IMG/VR virus record: IMGVR_UViG_2537561506_000022
Span: 1 to 37,331 of that record
Length of the DNA stretch: 37,331 nucleotides
Direction: 5' to 3' (one strand)
DNA from: a virus
Taxonomy: Duplodnaviria > Heunggongvirae > Uroviricota > Caudoviricetes
This document shows, piece by piece, positions 1 to 31,169 of the stretch. The first letter of the stretch is position 1; every line of letters starts with the position of its first letter. Under the pieces are notes generated by a model, which ran no database searches, had not been told where the DNA came from, and saw only the letters and a list, made by a program, of their open reading frames with translations. The position numbers and the translations under genes are program-made.

Positions 1-1140
1 ATATGCGCCAGCACCTCGTATCATGGTGACAGTATTCTTAATCGTAATACCAGGGTCAACAATGAACACCCCCTCTGGTATAACAATCTCAGTTGGCAAC
101 GTAGCATCATCAATAGCCTTCTGAAACGCCGCTTTGTTCTGAGAACCGGTGTTGCCAACTTTAAATCCGTAGTCTGAAAGTGTCACCAAATCTACAGAAA
201 GTTTTTCATATACCGACATCGAGACGGCATCATTAAATTTAGGGGTATATGTAACTATTGAGGAGCCTTTATCTGTCTCTTGACTAATCAGGTCGCTCCG
301 CAACGATGCATCCCCTACAGATACCCAGGCACCAAGGGAAACCCCACCTGTTGATTCAGGGGTTGAATTCTCAGGAACATCTTTTGGTAAAGATCCATCC
401 CAACGGTAGTACTCGCCATTTCCATCAGGACGTTTCCAGTGAAGTGCCTGAAATCTAGTTGTTATTGAAGCACCATCCTGAAACGAATCAATAAGGGAAT
501 ATCCCCATAACCCACTACTTTCAGGATCAAGAAGAAGCGGTGATCCAGAATTATCAAAACTCAGTGTTTTATTCTTTCTCCCATCCGCATCAGGTAACTC
601 ATTTATAAACGATTCAGGTACTCTCAAGCTTCTGCTTAGGCTGGCACCAGAAAGAATATCAACATAATCTTTCGTTGCTGCGTCTTTCGGCCTGGATGGG
701 GCACGAAGATTACGAATATAGTTGTCCATTGCGTCGTAATAGTTAGCAGCAAATGACGGCTTACGTAGCGCCAGGCTAAACCAACTACGAACCTGCTGAA
801 TCAACATTGTCAACTTATCAAGCGCATCCTCATGCACCTCAGCAAAGAACTTACCCTGGTTACGGAGATCCGTTTCCTGCGTAACCGGCAATTCACGTGA
901 TATGGAAATCTGGTAACCATTAGCAAGAGCTGTTGCCAGTATTACATTACCACCTACATACCCACCTGCGCCGGTTACTGTGTAGTCAGTATCTAGCGTC
1001 AGAACAGTGATGTTATCGTTCAGGTCTACAACCTGGACTACCAGATCAGACTTCTTAAAAATCCTGAAGGTATAATGGAATGTCGTTGTAACACCGTTAC
1101 CGGTGTATTCGTTGTGGTCAACTTCGGTTGAGACCGTCAT
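1..1140 (-). CDS. Tail fibre/tailspike, N-terminal ~380 codons (T7 gp17-like adaptor domain); C-terminus lies beyond the window start
   Basis: Reverse-strand ATG at 1138..1140 with GGAG 7 nt upstream; N-terminus MTVSTEVDHNEYTGNGVTTTFHYTFRIF...DYTVTG resembles the T7 gp17 N-terminal domain; open frame continues to position 1. Not in ORF track because it is truncated. Confidence 0.75.
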   Translation of the reverse strand, partial: MTVSTEVDHNEYTGNGVTTTFHYTFRIFKKSDLVVQVVDLNDNITVLTLDTDYTVTGAGGYVGGNVILATALANGYQISISRELPVTQETDLRNQGKFFAEVHEDALDKLTMLIQQVRSWFSLALRKPSFAANYYDAMDNYIRNLRAPSRPKDAATKDYVDILSGASLSRSLRVPESFINELPDADGRKNKTLSFDNSGSPLLLDPESSGLWGYSLIDSFQDGASITTRFQALHWKRPDGNGEYYRWDGSLPKDVPENSTPESTGGVSLGAWVSVGDASLRSDLISQETDKGSSIVTYTPKFNDAVSMSVYEKLSVDLVTLSDYGFKVGNTGSQNKAAFQKAIDDATLPTEIVIPEGVFIVDPGITIKNTVTMIRGAGAY

Positions 1141-1244
1141 GTTAAATCTCCAGATAGTCGCAGCACCCGTTGCGCCGCATATCCGGTTATTCTATTACCT
1201 GAAAAACCACATATGGATATATAACCCATAAATACGAACAGATA

Positions 1245-1259
1245 TTACCTTTCAGGTGA
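1245..1259. promoter_or_regulatory. 15-bp palindrome TTACC-TTTCA-GGTGA (site a) in fibre / SOS-antirepressor divergent region
   Basis: Inverted repeat read directly; member of a family found at about 13 intergenic positions; preceded by an AACCACATA block also found at 21063 and 28142. Confidence 0.4.
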
Positions 1260-1296
1260 TTCGCAAAACGTGCTGGATAGCAAACAAATTATTTGA

Positions 1297-1316
1297 TACT
1301 GTATATTTATACAGTT
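1297..1316. promoter_or_regulatory. LexA (SOS) box
   Basis: tactgtatatttatacagtt = CTGT-N8(AT-rich)-ACAG, matching the E. coli LexA box consensus TACTGTATATATATACAGTA; sits about 20 nt upstream of the ATG at 1336. Confidence 0.7.
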
Positions 1317-1335
1317 ATTGCATGGAGAAGATAAG

Positions 1336-1593
1336 ATGCAGCAGTATCACTATCCACTGGAAGACGGATTTACCGAAAGGATTCACACGCCGGGAGGCGT
1401 CAGGTCACTGGTGGAGGGATCGCACTTGATGAAATTACTCCGGGATCTCGATAAGGATGGATTTAATGTCGATGGCCCACTTGCCGAACTGACTGCACTG
1501 ATTAACTACGTCACCAGCTCGCAGATGTCTATGCAGGATCTGCAAACACATCTCGACTATTGTGCCGAACAATTACGTAAACAAACCAGATAA
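1336..1593 (+). CDS. Small stand-alone antirepressor-like protein (homologue of the shared Ant C-terminal domain), probably SOS-controlled
   Basis: ATG at 1336 with GGAG at 1324-1327 (track ORF 1318 starts at TTG); 85 aa; about 45% identical to the C-terminal 65 aa shared by the three larger antirepressors (H-P-GV..L.E.S.LM.LL..L..DG..V.G..AELT...QTH..Y). Confidence 0.6.
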   Translation: MQQYHYPLEDGFTERIHTPGGVRSLVEGSHLMKLLRDLDKDGFNVDGPLAELTALINYVTSSQMSMQDLQTHLDYCAEQLRKQTR

Positions 1594-1611
1594 GGTTTGC
1601 AATTACCAAAA

Positions 1612-1655
1612 GGAGTGCTTATATTTACCTTTGCGGTAAATTTACATCGCACTCC
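1612..1655. repeat. 44-bp extended inverted repeat (GGAGTGC...GCACTCC) enclosing palindrome site b TTACC-TTTGC-GGTAA (1625..1639)
   Basis: Read directly: GGAGTGC at 1612-1618 pairs with GCACTCC at 1649-1655; the inner 15-mer matches the operator family. Confidence 0.45.
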
Positions 1656-1731
1656 TCTTGTGCCATAGTAATCGGGCACTGGCAAAATCCAGTGCCGGGA
1701 TTGGCGTCCCGGATTACTAAAAGGCGCATTC

Positions 1732-1752
1732 ACCGCGCAAGCGGTTTTTTTA
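1732..1752 (+). terminator. Intrinsic terminator (ACCGC-GCAA-GCGGT plus T7 run)
   Basis: 5-bp stem with GNRA tetraloop followed by TTTTTTT; lies between the small antirepressor gene and the Bro-N antirepressor gene. Confidence 0.5.
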
Positions 1753-1850
1753 TGCGTATAGCACGGCCACATTCGTATTATGGTGGGCTGTGTGGGGGCA
1801 CCGAAAGGTGCGCCGGGTCCTTTTAGCCGGTTACGCCAACCCTGCACAGT

Positions 1851-1883
1851 TCACCACCAACCGATTGGCGTCGGTAGTGGTGA
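1851..1883 (+). promoter_or_regulatory. Hairpin TCACCAC...GTGGTGA about 25 nt upstream of the Bro-N antirepressor start
   Basis: TCACCAC (1851-1857) / GTGGTGA (1877-1883) with inner ACCGA-TTGGCG-TCGGT; a related ATCACCAG-N7-CTGGTGAT element precedes the antirepressor at 35393. Confidence 0.35.
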
Positions 1884-1908
1884 TTAACCAGACTAAAAGG
1901 TAACCACT

Positions 1909-2604
1909 ATGACAGCTACAAAAAGCACGTCCATTTTTTCTTTCGAATCCCAAGCCGATATACGAGTAATCGTCATTAATGGTGAGCCATGGTTTATCGC
2001 TTCAGATGTTTGTCGGGCTATAGGCATAGCAAACCATCGAGATGCTGTTCGAAAACTTGATGATGATGAGAAGGGCGTCGCTTCAACCGACACCCCTGGC
2101 GGTGAGCAAGAATCGATCATCATCTCCGAGTCAGGCCTCTACACACTGATCCTCCGCTGCCGCGACGCAGTGACACCAGGCACTATCCCCTACCGCTTTC
2201 GTAAATGGGTTACAGGTGAGGTTCTTCCTCAGATCCGCCGCACCGGAAGCTACATTAAAAACTCGCTCCCGCAGGAAGAACGCATAAAGATGCTTGCCGA
2301 CCAGGTAGCCAGCGCCACGGCGTCAGCAGTGATGCAGGCGATGAAGATAGAGAACAAAACCTACAGTGCCCCGCTGAAGCCCGGCTACCGCAGCCTGATT
2401 CATTCTCCGTCTGGTGTTCTCGGCCTGACTGAGAACTCACTGCTGATGAATCTGCTGAACCAGTTACAGGAAGACGGGCATGATGTATCGGGCGCAGCGG
2501 CGGAGCTGACCACCATGTTCTGCTACATCGTCGGTGTGAGCAAATGCCTGCGTGATATCCAGACCCACGCGGAGTACATCAACGACAAGGCAGGGTTCTT
2601 CTGA
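1909..2604 (+). CDS. Phage antirepressor, Bro-N N-terminal domain plus shared C-terminal domain
   Basis: 231-aa ORF; N-terminus FSFESQADIRVIVINGEPWFIASDVCRAIGI is a Bro-N signature; C-terminal ~80 aa identical to the C-termini of ORFs 3681..4619 and 35363..36049. Confidence 0.8.
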   Translation: MTATKSTSIFSFESQADIRVIVINGEPWFIASDVCRAIGIANHRDAVRKLDDDEKGVASTDTPGGEQESIIISESGLYTLILRCRDAVTPGTIPYRFRKWVTGEVLPQIRRTGSYIKNSLPQEERIKMLADQVASATASAVMQAMKIENKTYSAPLKPGYRSLIHSPSGVLGLTENSLLMNLLNQLQEDGHDVSGAAAELTTMFCYIVGVSKCLRDIQTHAEYINDKAGFF

Positions 2605-2627
2605 CGGCGGCGGCACAGGGACGTGCC
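2366..2627 (+). repeat. Copy A of ~260-bp near-identical repeat (antirepressor C-terminal coding segment plus ~25 bp 3' flank)
   Basis: Near-identical to 35807..36071 (direct) and to the reverse complement of 3658..3920 (inverted); only a handful of substitutions seen by eye. Confidence 0.85.
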
Positions 2628-2668
2628 TTTAAATAATTCTGTACAGATTGCAGGTGAATAGCTTACTA

Positions 2669-2683
2669 TTACCTCACGGGTGA
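2669..2683. promoter_or_regulatory. Palindrome site c TTACC-TCACG-GGTGA upstream of the cargo cassette
   Basis: Matches the 15-bp palindrome family; intergenic. Confidence 0.35.
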
Positions 2684-2720
2684 TCCATAGCGATTAGGCA
2701 CCGATACAGGAGGAGCCCAC

Positions 2721-2753
2721 ATGAGAAAATTTGACGAGTACGAAGGCGTTTAA
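2721..2753 (+). CDS. Possible 10-codon leader peptide ORF (MRKFDEYEGV)
   Basis: ATG 5 nt after a strong AGGAGGAG Shine-Dalgarno; followed at 2773..2794 by a terminator hairpin and then the membrane-protein gene; attenuator-like layout. Confidence 0.25.
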   Translation: MRKFDEYEGV

Positions 2754-2772
2754 CATTCGGATAGTTTAATGA

Positions 2773-2794
2773 CGGGGCCATTAGGCCCCGTTTT
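2773..2794 (+). terminator. Hairpin CGGGGCC-ATTA-GGCCCCG plus TTTT (possible attenuator/terminator)
   Basis: 7-bp GC-rich stem followed by a short T run, located between the mini-ORF and the RBS/GTG of ORF 2813. Confidence 0.4.
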
Positions 2795-2812
2795 CATGTC
2801 TGGAGACAGTTT

Positions 2813-3352
2813 GTGTTAAGTGAAGAAATGCAATTTGCCATGGCTGTAGCTCAAATCGTAAGTGCAGTCGCGGTTTCGCTTGGCTTGTTCATAGCTATCG
2901 CTACTATTATTTATAATGTAAATACAGCGAGAAAAGTACACACTTCAGTATTCCTTGGTGAAAGCAGGTTTGATGTAGATTATAAGAAAGGCCTATCTAC
3001 TATGCGCCGCATTCACGAATCGAACAAATCATTCCGCTCTTATATGTATCCAAGCAATGGGCAGGCTGATCTTACGGATGAAGAAAAGACAGAGAAGAGA
3101 GAAATAATTTACTGCCTAGGTTTCTACGAACGCATGGCTGTGAGCGTGAAGCGGAAAACTTATGATGAGACCATGATTAAGGAAGTATTTTACAGCTCCG
3201 TTGTAAATAACTATCAGATTGCGCTACCTCTTATACAAGCCATTAGAGAAAAAGAAAACATAAACACATATTTTAAAGAATATGAATGGTTGGCCACACG
3301 ATGGAAGGATTGTCCATTGAAGGATAAATCCCCGTGGTACAAGTTTTGGTAA
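2813..3352 (+). CDS. Membrane-anchored protein of unknown function (N-terminal TM helix plus ~140-aa soluble domain); cargo candidate
   Basis: 179-aa ORF, GTG start with GGAG 7 nt upstream (alternative ATG at 2828); hydrophobic segment FAMAVAQIVSAVAVSLGLFIAIATIIY; locally AT-rich; no family recognised by eye. Confidence 0.6.
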   Translation: MLSEEMQFAMAVAQIVSAVAVSLGLFIAIATIIYNVNTARKVHTSVFLGESRFDVDYKKGLSTMRRIHESNKSFRSYMYPSNGQADLTDEEKTEKREIIYCLGFYERMAVSVKRKTYDETMIKEVFYSSVVNNYQIALPLIQAIREKENINTYFKEYEWLATRWKDCPLKDKSPWYKFW

Positions 3353-3445
3353 GCCCGCGTTGCGGGCTTTTTTATGGACGAAACAAAAGTTAGTGCTACA
3401 CTCATTGACGCCACATTGAGGTGGCTTATAGATGGAAATTTCACA

Positions 3446-3607
3446 ATGAAAAAAGCATTTGCTGCACTGTTCGTTTTGTTGTCTCTGGTAGCTTCAACTC
3501 AGGCCTTTGCCGGTCGTTGTCAGCACGACAGCGATACTGCTGCTGACGGCTCCCGCTGCGGTGGGCGTTCTGCGGATTCCCGCCCGGGCGGCGGTGGCAT
3601 TCGTTAA
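3446..3607 (+). CDS. Small predicted secreted peptide (signal peptide plus 31-aa Cys/Gly/Arg-rich mature part)
   Basis: ATG at 3446 in frame of track ORF 3374..3607; MKKAFAALFVLLSLVASTQAFA looks like a Sec signal peptide with an AFA-G cleavage motif; the coding region is GC-rich unlike its neighbours; weak RBS. Confidence 0.35.
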   Translation: MKKAFAALFVLLSLVASTQAFAGRCQHDSDTAADGSRCGGRSADSRPGGGGIR

Positions 3608-3630
3608 AAACAAGGCCGCGAAAGCGGCCT
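3603..3630 (-). terminator. Intrinsic terminator for the leftward antirepressor transcript (AGGCCGC-GAAA-GCGGCCT plus U-run on minus strand)
   Basis: 7-bp stem with 4-nt loop; minus-strand reading gives the hairpin followed by TGTTTTTAAC. Confidence 0.55.
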
Positions 3631-3642
3631 GTGACATGTCAC
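3631..3642. promoter_or_regulatory. 12-bp perfect palindrome GTGACATGTCAC (second copy at 24368..24379)
   Basis: Exact palindrome present twice in the window, both times followed by N-CTA and both just 3' of a minus-strand gene. Confidence 0.3.
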
Positions 3643-3657
3643 GCTAGTTTCGTTTTG

Positions 3658-3920
3658 CACGTCCCTGTGCCGCCGTTCTGTCAGAAGAACCCTGCCTTGT
3701 CGTTGATGTATTCCGCGTGCGTCTGGATATCACGCAGGCATTTGCTCACACCGACGATGTAGCAGAACATGGTGGTCAGCTCCGCCGCTGCGCCCGATAC
3801 ATCATGCCCGTCTTCCTGTAACTGGTTCAGCAGATTCATCAGCAGTGAGTTCTCAGTCAGGCCGAGAACACCAGACGGCGAATGAATCAGACTGCGGTAG
3901 CCTGGCTTCAATGGATAACC
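3658..3920 (-). repeat. Copy B (inverted) of the ~260-bp antirepressor C-terminal repeat
   Basis: Reverse complement matches copies A and C; slightly more diverged at its 5' end. Confidence 0.85.
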
Positions 3921-4619
3921 ATAACATTTTGTCTGTGTTTTAATTGCCTCACGAAGCGCATCTAACATCTTGACTGCCACTTCATCATTCTCTGATGCAG
4001 ATCCAGCAGGGAGATACTCCCCTTCAAGCGGAACCCGAGCAACAAGAGACAACGCTTCGGCAAATTGATCTTCACCAATTTCTTTGTACGAACAGCCAAA
4101 ATGAGATTTCAGTGACGACCACATGGTGATCATCGCCTTAGCCTGTTTTTCTTTTGGCAGAGACTGACCGCGACTCATGACGAGTTGTTTAATGGCTTCC
4201 TGCTGTTCAGTTGTTATTTTACCCGGCAACGCCTTTTTAGCTTTGCGTGGGTTAACCACATGGCCTTTAGTCCAGTACTCGTAGAGCACATCGTCACACT
4301 CTTCCTGATACTGGATTACCTTGTCGCGGATTTCAGGGCGGACTTTGTTAGGGCTGATGCTGTTCAACCAAGCTGCCAATTTTCGTAAAGCCATACAAAT
4401 CATGGCTTGCACCCCACCGGCAGAAGGTATGGTGATTTCCACCATACCCTTCGAGAAGCGTTGAGAAATCTTCTTATGTTGAGATTTCCAGTCTAGCCCC
4501 ATTCCCTCAACGATAGGTTTCATTGGGGTATACGGTTCGCCGTTGTGATTGACAACATAAAGCTCTGCGCCGTGGAATGGCACGTTGATAGTAGATACTG
4601 CTGTTGCTATACTCGTCAT
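3681..4619 (-). CDS. Phage antirepressor (P22 Ant-like N-terminal region plus shared C-terminal domain)
   Basis: 312-aa ORF; position and orientation downstream of an Arc-like gene mirror the P22 immI arc-ant layout; C-terminal ~80 aa shared with ORFs 1909 and 35363. Confidence 0.75.
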   Translation of the reverse strand: MTSIATAVSTINVPFHGAELYVVNHNGEPYTPMKPIVEGMGLDWKSQHKKISQRFSKGMVEITIPSAGGVQAMICMALRKLAAWLNSISPNKVRPEIRDKVIQYQEECDDVLYEYWTKGHVVNPRKAKKALPGKITTEQQEAIKQLVMSRGQSLPKEKQAKAMITMWSSLKSHFGCSYKEIGEDQFAEALSLVARVPLEGEYLPAGSASENDEVAVKMLDALREAIKTQTKCYGYPLKPGYRSLIHSPSGVLGLTENSLLMNLLNQLQEDGHDVSGAAAELTTMFCYIVGVSKCLRDIQTHAEYINDKAGFF

Positions 4620-4668
4620 GTCGTTAATTCCTATACGTAGTTTTACGATACTGAAGCCCTGACGGTCT

Positions 4669-4682
4669 GGCCACCGTGGGGC
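4669..4682. promoter_or_regulatory. Palindrome GGCCACCGTGGGGC in the arc-ant intergenic region
   Basis: Shares the CCACCGTGGGG core with 4874..4888; a GAAGCCC/GGGCTTC hairpin is also present here. Confidence 0.35.
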
Positions 4683-4691
4683 TTCGCTGTT

Positions 4692-4859
4692 TTATGCCAC
4701 GCTATTCTTCTCACCAGTGAGTCCATACACTTTCCTCAGCTGATAGATAATCTCTGTATTGAACTTTCGGCATTCTTTTTCGCCATTTCTTTCAATAGCT
4801 AACTTCACATCGTCCGGAAAACGAACTCGTCGTTGACACATCTCTTTTGCTTTTTGCAT
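4692..4859 (-). CDS. Arc-like ribbon-helix-helix repressor
   Basis: ATG at 4857..4859 (reverse) with GGAG 7 nt upstream (track ORF extends to a GTG at 4880); RVRFPDDVK...NTEIIYQLRKV aligns with P22 Arc (NLRWPREV...NSEIYQRV). Confidence 0.55.
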   Translation of the reverse strand: MQKAKEMCQRRVRFPDDVKLAIERNGEKECRKFNTEIIYQLRKVYGLTGEKNSVA

Positions 4860-4873
4860 TTCATATCTCCTTA

Positions 4874-4888
4874 GCCCCACCGTGGGGC
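4874..4888. promoter_or_regulatory. 15-bp perfect palindrome GCCCCAC-C-GTGGGGC, candidate Arc/Mnt-type operator
   Basis: Sits next to the Arc-like RBS in the divergent arc/mnt control region; CACCGTG half-sites recur at 4899-4907 and, inverted, at 4926-4932. Confidence 0.45.
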
Positions 4889-4979
4889 AAAATAATTGTC
4901 ACACCGTGCGTCATTGATGTCAAGCACACGGTGAGGCATACTTCAATCATTGCAAGTAACTCAATATTTGGTGAAGAAC

Positions 4980-5411
4980 ATGAGCAGAGAAGATCCACAA
5001 CTAAGGATCAGACTTCCCGTCGAAGTAAAAGAAAAAATAGAAATTTCTGCAAAAGCCAATAAGCGATCAATGAACGCTGAAATAGTACAACGTCTTGACA
5101 CCAGCTTTCTGAAAGATATTCATGAAGATGACGTAATTTCTGCTTATGAAGCAAAAATCATTGCAAACAATGCACGACATGAAATATCAAATATTATTTT
5201 CAAAAGAACCTTTAATGAAATTAATAAGAAAATAACACTTGGACATACAAGTTTTTATATAAACCTTAATGACCTTGAACTGGAATCACTTGCAGATAAT
5301 GATTACCAGATCATCTTTGAAAAAACATTTAATAAGCTCAATGAACTAGGTTACATCATCTGTGAAAACTCATGGGATGCAGATGGTTTTGGAATTGAAA
5401 TACCTGAATAG
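4980..5411 (+). CDS. Mnt-like ribbon-helix-helix repressor with a ~60-aa C-terminal extension
   Basis: ATG at 4980 with GGTGA 5 nt upstream; SREDPQLRIRLPVEVKEKIEISAKANKRSMNAEIVQRL aligns closely with P22 Mnt (ARDDPHFNFRMPMEVREKLKFRAEANGRSMNSELLQIV). Confidence 0.7.
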   Translation: MSREDPQLRIRLPVEVKEKIEISAKANKRSMNAEIVQRLDTSFLKDIHEDDVISAYEAKIIANNARHEISNIIFKRTFNEINKKITLGHTSFYINLNDLELESLADNDYQIIFEKTFNKLNELGYIICENSWDADGFGIEIPE

Positions 5412-17080: not shown

Positions 17081-17131
17081 CTTCTTTCTCCATTAGTGGG
17101 TCTGTTACGACCCACAGGTTAATAACAGGCG

Positions 17132-21451: not shown

Positions 21452-21528
21452 GTGGCATTAGCTCAGTTGGACAGAGCAACCGCCTTCTAAGCGGTTGGTC
21501 GCAGGTTCGAATCCTGCATGCCACGCCA
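21452..21528 (+). tRNA. tRNA-Arg (anticodon UCU), phage-borne
   Basis: 77-nt cloverleaf read by eye: acceptor GTGGCAT/ATGCCAC, D-arm AGCTC...GAGC, anticodon stem ACCGC/GCGGT with loop CTTCTAA, T-arm GCAGGTTCGAATCCTGC, discriminator G and encoded CCA. Confidence 0.9.
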
Positions 21529-29021: not shown

Positions 29022-29833
29022 AAGAAATCCTCCCATGCTTCAGGGCTGTTCCAGTGCGGAACGTTGTTATCAGGTAATGTTGATTGCTTCTGTCTGCTAA
29101 TCTGCAGCCTCCTTGACAGCTTCTGCTCCCACTGTGCCTGATGGTATGCCTTACCCTCAGCCATCCAGTAAATTCTGAACTCTGCAAGTTCCTGTGCCGT
29201 TGGCAGACTGTCCAGGTAGATCCCCTGCAATGAGCTTTTCCGAAGAAAGTCATCTGATGGTTTCCATTGTTCATGCATTACAAATTTGCCTAATTGCCCT
29301 AGCCCACCAGGAGGAACAAAGTTATTCATCACGGCGTTGTTTGCGCCGGGGTCATGAGGCACAGAATCCCCGGTTTTTGTCCTGCTCTCCCTCTCTTGGT
29401 TAAATGACTGGTTATATGACTGGTTCTGGATCCCGTTTTTGGGATCATTCAACATCCCGTTTTTGGGATCATTCAACATCCCGTTTTTGGGTATATTCCC
29501 GTTTTCGGGTATATTCCCGTTTTCGGGTTCATTCCCCCCTTCCCGGTTGCCTTTAATGTTCCCGTTTTTGGTTATATTAAGAGAGAAAACCCGCACTCTT
29601 TTCGTCGCTCCCTTTCTCTCTCCGGTATCTGAAATAAGCCCCATTTTCATGAGCGATATAAGCCCGGCCTGCACGGTTTTTTTATTCAGGCAAGTGTCTT
29701 TAACGAGTCGTTCTATGCTGGGGTAGCAGAGGTTATATTCATCGGCTCTGTCAGCCATCGAGAGCAGTATGAGCTTTAATGATGAGCTGCCTGGATCTGT
29801 CTCCCAGGCCCAATCTGTTGCATGTCTGCTCAT
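29018..29833 (-). CDS. Replication initiator (lambda O-like) with internal peptide repeats
   Basis: 271 aa; central ENGNIPENGNIPKNGMLNDPKNGMLNDPKNG repeats are encoded by the DNA iterons; immediately followed by the P-like gene. Confidence 0.65.
   Translation of the reverse strand: MSRHATDWAWETDPGSSSLKLILLSMADRADEYNLCYPSIERLVKDTCLNKKTVQAGLISLMKMGLISDTGERKGATKRVRVFSLNITKNGNIKGNREGGNEPENGNIPENGNIPKNGMLNDPKNGMLNDPKNGIQNQSYNQSFNQERESRTKTGDSVPHDPGANNAVMNNFVPPGGLGQLGKFVMHEQWKPSDDFLRKSSLQGIYLDSLPTAQELAEFRIYWMAEGKAYHQAQWEQKLSRRLQISRQKQSTLPDNNVPHWNSPEAWEDFL
29431..29577. repeat. Iterons (candidate replication origin) inside the O-like gene
   Basis: Tandem units: two of 24 bp (tcccgtttttgggatcattcaaca), three of 18 bp (tcccgttttYgggtWYat), and two more degenerate copies. 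Confidence 0.65.
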
Positions 29834-30584: not shown

Positions 30585-31169
30585 ATGAAAAGTATCCAGG
30601 ACGTCCGCAGGCAAAATCTCAACGACTTGATCGACCGTGAATTCAATGGTGTTCAGACGCGGATGGCAGAAAAACTTGGAACTCAGGCAAATCTGGTAAA
30701 CCGCTGGGCTCTTGGCAAGAAGGTTATCGGCGACCAGGTTGCGCGAAAAATTGAAGCTGCCGCCAATAAACCCCGTAACTGGCTTGATATCGATCGCTCG
30801 CTTTCTCAGGAAGGTTTTCAGCCTGTCGGCCCAAGCGACATTGGTCAGCTGGCGGCTCACAACCTGGAACGCTGGATGAGCGAAAGCCGCGACCTTTCAA
30901 CACAGGGAAAACTTCACCGCGCATCCGGCGTCGCCCAGGTGACAATCAGCCGCCTGTTAAACAATGAGGTCAGCGTTTCCATTTCCACCCTGGAGAATGT
31001 TGCATCTGCATTCGGGCGTCACGGATATGAACTACTGATTCACCCGCACGACCCTGCAACTATCAACTATGACCGCTCGCGCTACGCATTATTACCTGAA
31101 ACCGAGAAAGCAAAGATCGAAAGTTACATTGAATTTGTCATCAACCAGAACGAAAAAAACAAACAATAA
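30585..31169 (+). CDS. Prophage repressor candidate: two XRE-type HTH domains, no S24 peptidase domain
   Basis: 194 aa; HTH-like segments QTRMAEKLGTQANLVNRW and SGVAQVTISRLLNNEVSVS; divergent from the Cro-like gene; followed by a strong terminator. Confidence 0.6.
   Translation: MKSIQDVRRQNLNDLIDREFNGVQTRMAEKLGTQANLVNRWALGKKVIGDQVARKIEAAANKPRNWLDIDRSLSQEGFQPVGPSDIGQLAAHNLERWMSESRDLSTQGKLHRASGVAQVTISRLLNNEVSVSISTLENVASAFGRHGYELLIHPHDPATINYDRSRYALLPETEKAKIESYIEFVINQNEKNKQ

Follow-up and report, generated by a model that had tools for sequence, protein, structure and literature searches.

A predicted LexA-controlled antirepressor gene in an epsilon15/phiV10-like prophage of Escherichia coli, and three large antirepressors carrying a related C-terminal domain

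The locus at 1297-1593 raises the question of how a prophage whose repressor has no recognizable autopeptidase may sense DNA damage. An earlier note on this DNA, made from the letters alone, had proposed that a near-consensus LexA box drives a small gene (referred to as ant), that the encoded protein is homologous to a domain common to three large antirepressors, and that its target is a repressor without an S24 autopeptidase domain. These proposals were followed up in the window (the whole stretch of DNA analyzed, 37,331 nucleotides). Judged from nucleotide matches, the window is an epsilon15/phiV10-like (Uetakevirus) prophage in E. coli: its positions 1-5000 were matched at 94-96% identity by Uetakevirus phages (phiV10, TL-2011b, and others; epsilon15-like) in a megablast search. 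The ant and tailspike genes are arranged divergently, at a long distance from the immunity region: rep, the gene for the repressor, is located 29 kb away in the window. The same ant/tailspike layout was found in TL-2011b, phiV10, SPC32H, epsilon15, Tyrion, BUCT554, and BUCT711. A tRNA-Arg gene (anticodon TCT; 21452-21528, + strand) was observed amid genes of the opposite strand. The features discussed below are summarized in Table 1.

Table 1. Positions of the genes, RNAs, and predicted regulatory elements in the window.
Feature	Position	Strand	Remarks
Palindrome ATTACCTTTCAGGTGAT, putative Rep operator	1244-1260	.	13 nt upstream of proposed -35
Proposed -35, TGGATA	1274-1279	+	CTGGA.A (1273-1279) invariant in 10 aligned loci
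Proposed extended -10, TG + A + TACTGT	1294-1302	+	T.TG.TA.TGT (1292-1302) invariant in alignment
Predicted LexA box TACTGTATATTTATACAGTT	1297-1316	.	CTGT-N8-ACAG at 1299-1314
Shine-Dalgarno sequence, GGAG	1324-1327	+	8 nt before ATG 1336; conserved in alignment
ant, 85-aa small antirepressor	1336-1593	+	SPC32H Ant orthologue; ATG 1336, stop 1593
Stable hairpin after ant	1611-1656	+	encloses operator-like palindrome 1624-1640; followed by poor U tract
isrK sRNA	1676-1751	+	77.9 bits; between ant and Bro-N gene
C4 antisense RNA	1776-1861	+	77.7 bits; in tandem with isrK, before Bro-N gene
Ant-like C-terminal domain, Bro-N antirepressor	2356-2604	+	gene 1909-2604; 42% to small Ant, E 1e-13
Ant-like C-terminal domain, P22_AR_N antirepressor	3681-3923	-	gene 3681-4619; 42%, E 2e-14
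sar RNA	4621-4688	+	antisense to leader of P22-type gene
arc-like ORF	4692-4880	-	beside P22-type gene
mnt-like ORF, Arc/Mnt-type ribbon-helix-helix domain	4950-5411	+	divergent
rep, 194-aa repressor	30585-31169	+	presumed Ant target; matches 5D50 chain A
sRNA-Xcc1	35262-35351	+	62.9 bits; directly upstream of AntA-type gene
Ant-like C-terminal domain, AntA-type antirepressor	35801-36049	+	ORF 35363-36049; 40%, E 1.4e-13
Integrase gene	36081-37331	-	adjoins AntA-type antirepressor gene

The small gene ant and its predicted promoter

Only one entry among the PDB sequences was matched by the 85-aa protein: chain E of 5D50, 'Anti-repressor protein' (phmmer; E 4.1e-47, residues 2-84 vs 3-85). In a tblastn search, the protein was 88% identical over its full length to the product of the gene annotated as ant in Salmonella phages SPC32H and SPC32N. 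No significant match to it was detected in Pfam, NCBIfam, or PADLOC, none of the N-terminal P22_AR_N, Bro-N, and AntA domains was found in it with Pfam, and in PHROGs it belonged to phrog_450, described as "unknown function".

The putative LexA box (TACTGTATATTTATACAGTT) showed 2 mismatches to the 20-bp LexA consensus of E. coli (TACTGTATATATATACAGTA), and 19 nt separated its end from the ATG codon of ant. It was the sole site with 3 or fewer mismatches to the LexA 20-mer in the 37-kb window, and none of 100 dinucleotide-preserving shuffles yielded such a site, confirming the near-consensus box that the earlier note had placed upstream of the small gene. The shorter pattern CTGT-N8-ACAG occurred three times in the window: within this box and at 17102 and 21644. 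The latter two were rejected as LexA sites and are read as chance matches, because they had 11 and 8 mismatches to the 20-mer, respectively, and G+C-rich spacers.

To place the box in a wider context, the 200 nt upstream of ant were scanned in 17 related loci, including those of Escherichia, Salmonella, and Enterobacter and 7 prophages in Citrobacter, Erwinia, Superficieibacter, Pseudocitrobacter, Kluyvera, and Klebsiella genomes. The best LexA-like 20-mer ended 17-21 nt before the start codon in every locus (17/17). The CTGT/ACAG arms were kept while the spacers varied (ATATTTAT, ATGTTTAT, ATAAGCAT, ACATATAT, and ATAAACAT), which is the pattern expected for a protein-binding site; the left arm was ATGT, not CTGT, in 5 of the loci (Klebsiella, Kluyvera, and Superficieibacter). 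LexA is predicted to bind at 1297-1316. Between SPC32N and SPC32H, the intergenic region from the tailspike gene to ant differed by one substitution, with A replacing C in the ACAG arm of SPC32N. Kim and Ryu are said to have reported in 2013 that this change, of the type found in SPC32N, makes Ant constitutive and the phage virulent-like.

When the tailspike-ant intergenic regions of ten phages were aligned, two conserved hexamers, TGGATA and TACTGT, were found with a spacing of 17 nt, and probably represent the -35 and -10 elements of the ant promoter. This assignment is based on their conservation (Table 1) and on the analogy with p95 of phage 186: in the 186 record, the -10 element (29044-29049) and the LexA site (29044-29063) both begin with TACTGT, and the corresponding hexamer in the window, at the putative promoter, is located at 1297-1302. 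No promoter over the LexA box was reported by a generic sigma-70 scan, and the proposed hexamers are weak matches. The LexA box starts with the proposed -10 hexamer TACTGT, and bound LexA would therefore cover both the -10 element and the transcription start, which is predicted near 1309. Judged from the conserved hexamers, the box probably overlaps the ant promoter.

The repressor gene rep and its putative operators

The product of rep was related to chain A of the same PDB entry, 5D50, named 'Repressor' (E 4e-42, residues 1-190). Pfam assigned to it HTH domains only (HTH_3 and a YdaS-like HTH), with no match to Peptidase_S24 in the 30585-31169 product, in agreement with the earlier proposal of a repressor without this autopeptidase. 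The amino acid sequence was the same as that of Rep in phiV10 and vB_EcoP_ZX5 (100% identity), and its identity to Rep of SPC32H was 41.8%; by region, the latter value was 54% for the first 70 residues and 39% for residues 91-190. Homologues of Ant and full-length homologues of Rep were found in 35 and 36 phage records, respectively, essentially the same set, and the records whose taxonomy was read belonged to Uetakevirus or were left unassigned.

Conservation relative to SPC32H was discordant between the two proteins: 88% identity for Ant versus 42% for Rep. Either Ant touches conserved surfaces of the repressor, in which case cross-induction of heteroimmune phages may be possible (cf. Gifsy), or the modules have been reassorted.

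A palindrome upstream of the proposed -35 of ant (ATTACCTTTCAGGTGAT) is a candidate operator of Rep. In the epsilon15 record, the orthologous site is annotated as protein_bind 'repressor / lysogeny', and equivalent sites are likewise annotated as repressor-binding. The half-sites did not vary among the 10 phages aligned. The pattern ATTACC-N5-GGTAAT, searched with a tolerance of 2 mismatches, occurred 12 times in the window against 1.16 expected (at 1244, 1624, 2668, 21114, 24256, 24274, 28121, 28183, 30129, 30514, 31226, and 31288), and these sites flank rep, with 30514 on one side and 31226 and 31288 on the other. Rep may therefore be expected to bind at 1244-1260 as one of several such sites. 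Invariance of the palindrome beside ant among phages whose Reps share no more than 42-45% identity would be unusual if it were an immunity-specific operator.

An Ant-like domain in three large antirepressors

When the window was searched by tblastn with the 85-aa protein, exactly three further copies were found (2356-2577, 3696-3923 on the - strand, and 35801-36034), with identities of 40-42% and E values of 1e-13 to 2e-14. Each corresponds to the last ~80 residues of a larger gene, as expected from the homology to the C-terminal domain common to three large antirepressors that had been claimed from the letters alone. For the AntA-type gene, the likely start is ATG 35393, which is preceded by AGGAGG, and not TTG 35363. 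The three fused copies were ~97% identical to each other at the DNA level. The shared DNA segment starts at the PLKPGY codons, aligned with residue 7 of small Ant, and continues for ~25 nt beyond the stop codon; upstream of these codons the three large genes are unrelated. Since the shared segment begins near residue 7 of the small protein and is preceded by unrelated sequences, small Ant corresponds to one complete module. In a ten-sequence alignment, 21 columns were invariant between the small and fused copies. No LexA box was detected at the three large antirepressor genes at 3 or fewer mismatches in the 37-kb window.

The earlier note had regarded the shared C-terminal domain as the repressor-binding effector. 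This is a reasonable reading: the 86-aa SPC32H Ant consists of that domain alone and was deposited with the repressor (5D50), and the fused domain of the Bro-N gene directly matched 5D50 chain E (E 1.2e-14). In the phage collection, the fused domain was found only in records that also have small Ant and Rep. In the ZX5 paper, an experimental paper on an E. coli member, overexpression of the Bro-N antirepressor decreased lysogens from 1e9 to 1e6; both Rep and the C-terminal domain of the Bro-N antirepressor of ZX5 are identical to those of the window. That paper makes no mention of LexA, SPC32H, or the small gene.

An insertion of 4.4 kb follows ant in the window. It contains two of the large antirepressor genes, the isrK and C4 RNAs, a P22-type arc/mnt/sar module, and cargo genes. 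RNAs were searched with Rfam at the gathering threshold (Table 1). The order ant, isrK, C4, and Bro-N::Ant-like gene was kept in 8/8 related loci with a fused copy, and isrK and C4 were absent from 4/4 scanned loci without one. The stretch of 91 nt at 1590-1680, which contains the hairpin after ant, had a minimum free energy of -28.2 kcal/mol when folded (z = -4.3), and the first canonical terminator after ant is that of isrK (1732-1751). Given this order without a canonical terminator before isrK, transcription released from LexA could feed the RNA-controlled large antirepressor. A promoter-like sequence, TTTACA-17-CATAGT (1641-1669), was also observed, from which the start would fall on the first base of isrK; the operator-like palindrome at 1624-1640 abuts its -35. 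The region 3681-5411 resembles the immI module of P22, with a P22_AR_N antirepressor, sar, and arc-like and mnt-like genes.

Two antirepressor genes converge, and their Ant-like 3' ends form a 270-nt inverted repeat (2336-2605 and 3680-3949; 92% complementary) that brackets 1.07 kb of cargo: a DUF4760 gene (2813-3352) and a small signal-peptide-like ORF (3374-3607). At the corresponding position, TL-2011b carries different cargo, including a YafO-family toxin. The inverted repeat could support inversion or cassette exchange. In phiV10 (3693-3925), a frameshift splits the Ant-like domain of the Bro-N antirepressor into PhiV10p23 and p22, and phiV10 is probably without a functional fused copy.

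We tentatively consider that the Ant fold may be a portable Rep-neutralizing module used four times, so that one non-cleavable repressor would integrate four inputs, with the fused copies matched to Rep by gene conversion; this possibility is rather doubtful. In such an arrangement, one copy stands alone under LexA, and three are fused to unrelated N-terminal domains with different RNA regulators. That three large antirepressors under different regulation each reuse the Ant module may be a new observation.

The proposed switch and known systems

Very probably, 1336-1593 is the SOS-sensing antirepressor gene of an epsilon15/phiV10-like prophage, an orthologue of SPC32H ant, and operates in a LexA-Ant-Rep switch. 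All of the features of the SPC32H type that can be assessed by sequence were found: Ant homology, the type of Rep, the LexA box, and the position in the genome. In the lysogen, host LexA bound at 1297-1316 would cover the -10 element (TACTGT) and the transcription start, so that ant would be kept silent. Upon DNA damage, activated RecA would cause LexA to cleave itself, and ant would be transcribed. The Ant tetramer, as in the SPC32H structure, would then bind the non-cleavable Rep and split the DNA-binding Rep tetramer into inactive dimers; with Rep disabled, lytic promoters would be released. According to the literature, LexA self-cleavage permits the synthesis of Ant, which inhibits the repressor by protein-protein contact; in SPC32H, an Ant tetramer takes up two Rep dimers, and the Rep tetramer that binds DNA is thereby broken. 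For the pair in the window, the Ant-Rep contact and the same induction events are presumed; the contact is an extrapolation because Rep is only 42% identical to SPC32H Rep, against 88% for Ant. The claim that a LexA-repressed small antirepressor acts on a non-cleavable repressor is thus supported by both the identity to SPC32H Ant and the homology of Rep to the co-crystallized partner (5D50). As for induction, a microcin classed as DNA-damaging in the paper concerned induced phiV10-species prophages of gut E. coli by factors of 21 and 47.

Since the prophage has three other antirepressors, small Ant could be dispensable. The LexA-Ant unit may then be functional but redundant or secondary, with induction proceeding mainly via the large antirepressors, whose Ant-like domains would be matched to Rep. 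The near identity of the fused domains at the DNA level is consistent with this, as is the parallel divergence of the fused domain (100, 77, and 54%) and Rep (100, 78, and 45%) in the E. coli, Tyrion, and Klebsiella phages, respectively, and the loss of lysogens in the ZX5 experiment was obtained with identical Rep and C-terminal domain. However, the large genes have no LexA box and so receive no SOS signal directly. In Salmonella relatives, small Ant suffices for induction, given that a large antirepressor is absent from the SPC32H locus, and the small gene was kept together with its LexA box in every relative examined. We therefore regard redundancy of this kind as unlikely.

That the 85-aa protein targets the large antirepressors, and not Rep, by forming mixed oligomers through the shared domain and thereby modulating them, appears very unlikely. 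The invariant columns shared by the small and fused copies would suit such an association, and SPC32H Ant is described as an oligomer (a tetramer); on the other hand, the orthologue is described as a direct binder of Rep in a phage without a large antirepressor beside ant, and the identity to the fused domains is only 40%. It is hardly credible that the LexA palindrome is a chance inverted repeat or serves the divergent tailspike gene. The intergenic region is indeed AT-rich, and the tailspike gene starts 158 nt away on the opposite strand, but the shuffled sequences gave no such site, the distance to the ant start codon was fixed in the 17 loci with conserved arms and variable spacers, and SPC32N and SPC32H are distinguished by a point change within the box. 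The LexA-Ant-Rep switch remains the preferred reading.

Of 5,426 complete E. coli genomes, 531 carried the ant locus (window 1140-1600). Identity was mostly 95-99%, no genome had more than 2 copies, and 3 of the places were on plasmids. When 1.84 billion representatives (50% clustering) were scanned in full, 45 relatives were obtained at E values up to 1e-3. Most were 80-130 aa in length; five were proteins of 130-319 aa in which the match lay C-terminally. In a species-level genome scan, 7 ant loci were found, all in Enterobacterales. The small-Ant family is thus narrow, yet common within E. coli. Among the matches listed, ant was annotated as "hypothetical protein" in E. coli genomes, and the same name is used in phiV10, epsilon15, TL-2011b, and ZX5; in the TL-2011b and phiV10 records, this orthologue is similar to epsilon15 gp19 and divergent from the tailspike/tail-fibre gene. 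The main value of the present analysis is therefore one of annotation: the gene is called a "hypothetical protein" though, for a close relative, the structure has been solved and the role is known. Recognizing ant explains how phiV10-like prophages, including those of EHEC, respond to DNA damage without a cleavable repressor. If confirmed, the shared domain would also provide a function for the C-terminal part of a class of large antirepressors that has no Pfam family.

The system itself is known: it is a SPC32H-type LexA/Ant/Rep switch, of which the window contains an orthologous and syntenic copy in an E. coli prophage. The Ant/Rep/LexA switch of SPC32H (Kim and Ryu 2013; Kim et al. 2016; PDB 5D50 and 5D4Z) is the closest known system. 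Shared with it are Ant (88% identical over the full length), a full-length Rep homologue without an S24 domain, an orthologous LexA box equally far from the start codon, the divergent orientation of ant and the tailspike gene, and membership in Uetakevirus. The differences are the identity of only 42% between the Reps, E. coli as the host of the window's prophage, and the 4.4-kb insertion after ant, which is not present beside SPC32H ant.

The arrangement of 186 Tum, to which the locus had been likened earlier, agreed in part. Tum is also a small antirepressor outside the immunity region that is repressed by LexA, and the promoter-operator design is alike: in 186 p95, the annotated -10 TACTGT opens the LexA site, and the 186 box (TACTGTATGTTTATACAGTA) is almost the same sequence as that of the window. 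The likeness did not extend to homology, and Ant was rejected as a Tum homologue: the BLASTP E value was 0.06 (over 46 residues), and Tum is DinI-like (Pfam DinI, 1.8e-17), whereas Ant had no DinI match. Phage 186 is, moreover, a P2-like myovirus with a different repressor. By these sequence comparisons, Tum of 186 and Ant are analogous in function but not related.

GfoA, GfhA, and GftA of the Salmonella Gifsy prophages are likewise small antirepressors that are encoded outside the immunity region, are directly controlled by LexA, and bind and inactivate non-cleavable repressors. They can act on non-cognate repressors (Lemire et al. 2011, PMC3121763). Unlike the phage in the window, the Gifsy antirepressors belong to lambdoid siphoviruses, and they are likened to Ant by functional description. 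SPC32H Ant is reportedly described by Kim and Ryu as a class distinct from them.

The large antirepressors resemble those of two known systems. The P22_AR_N antirepressor with arc, mnt, and sar resembles P22 immI (mnt-arc-ant-sar), and the Bro-N antirepressor preceded by the C4 and isrK RNAs resembles P1 c4-icd-ant. Small Ant differs from P22 Ant and P1 ant in having none of their N-terminal domains and in being under predicted LexA control, not that of Mnt/Arc or antisense RNA. In comparison with the P22 and P1 kinds, the large proteins of the window end in a SPC32H-Ant-like C-terminal domain.
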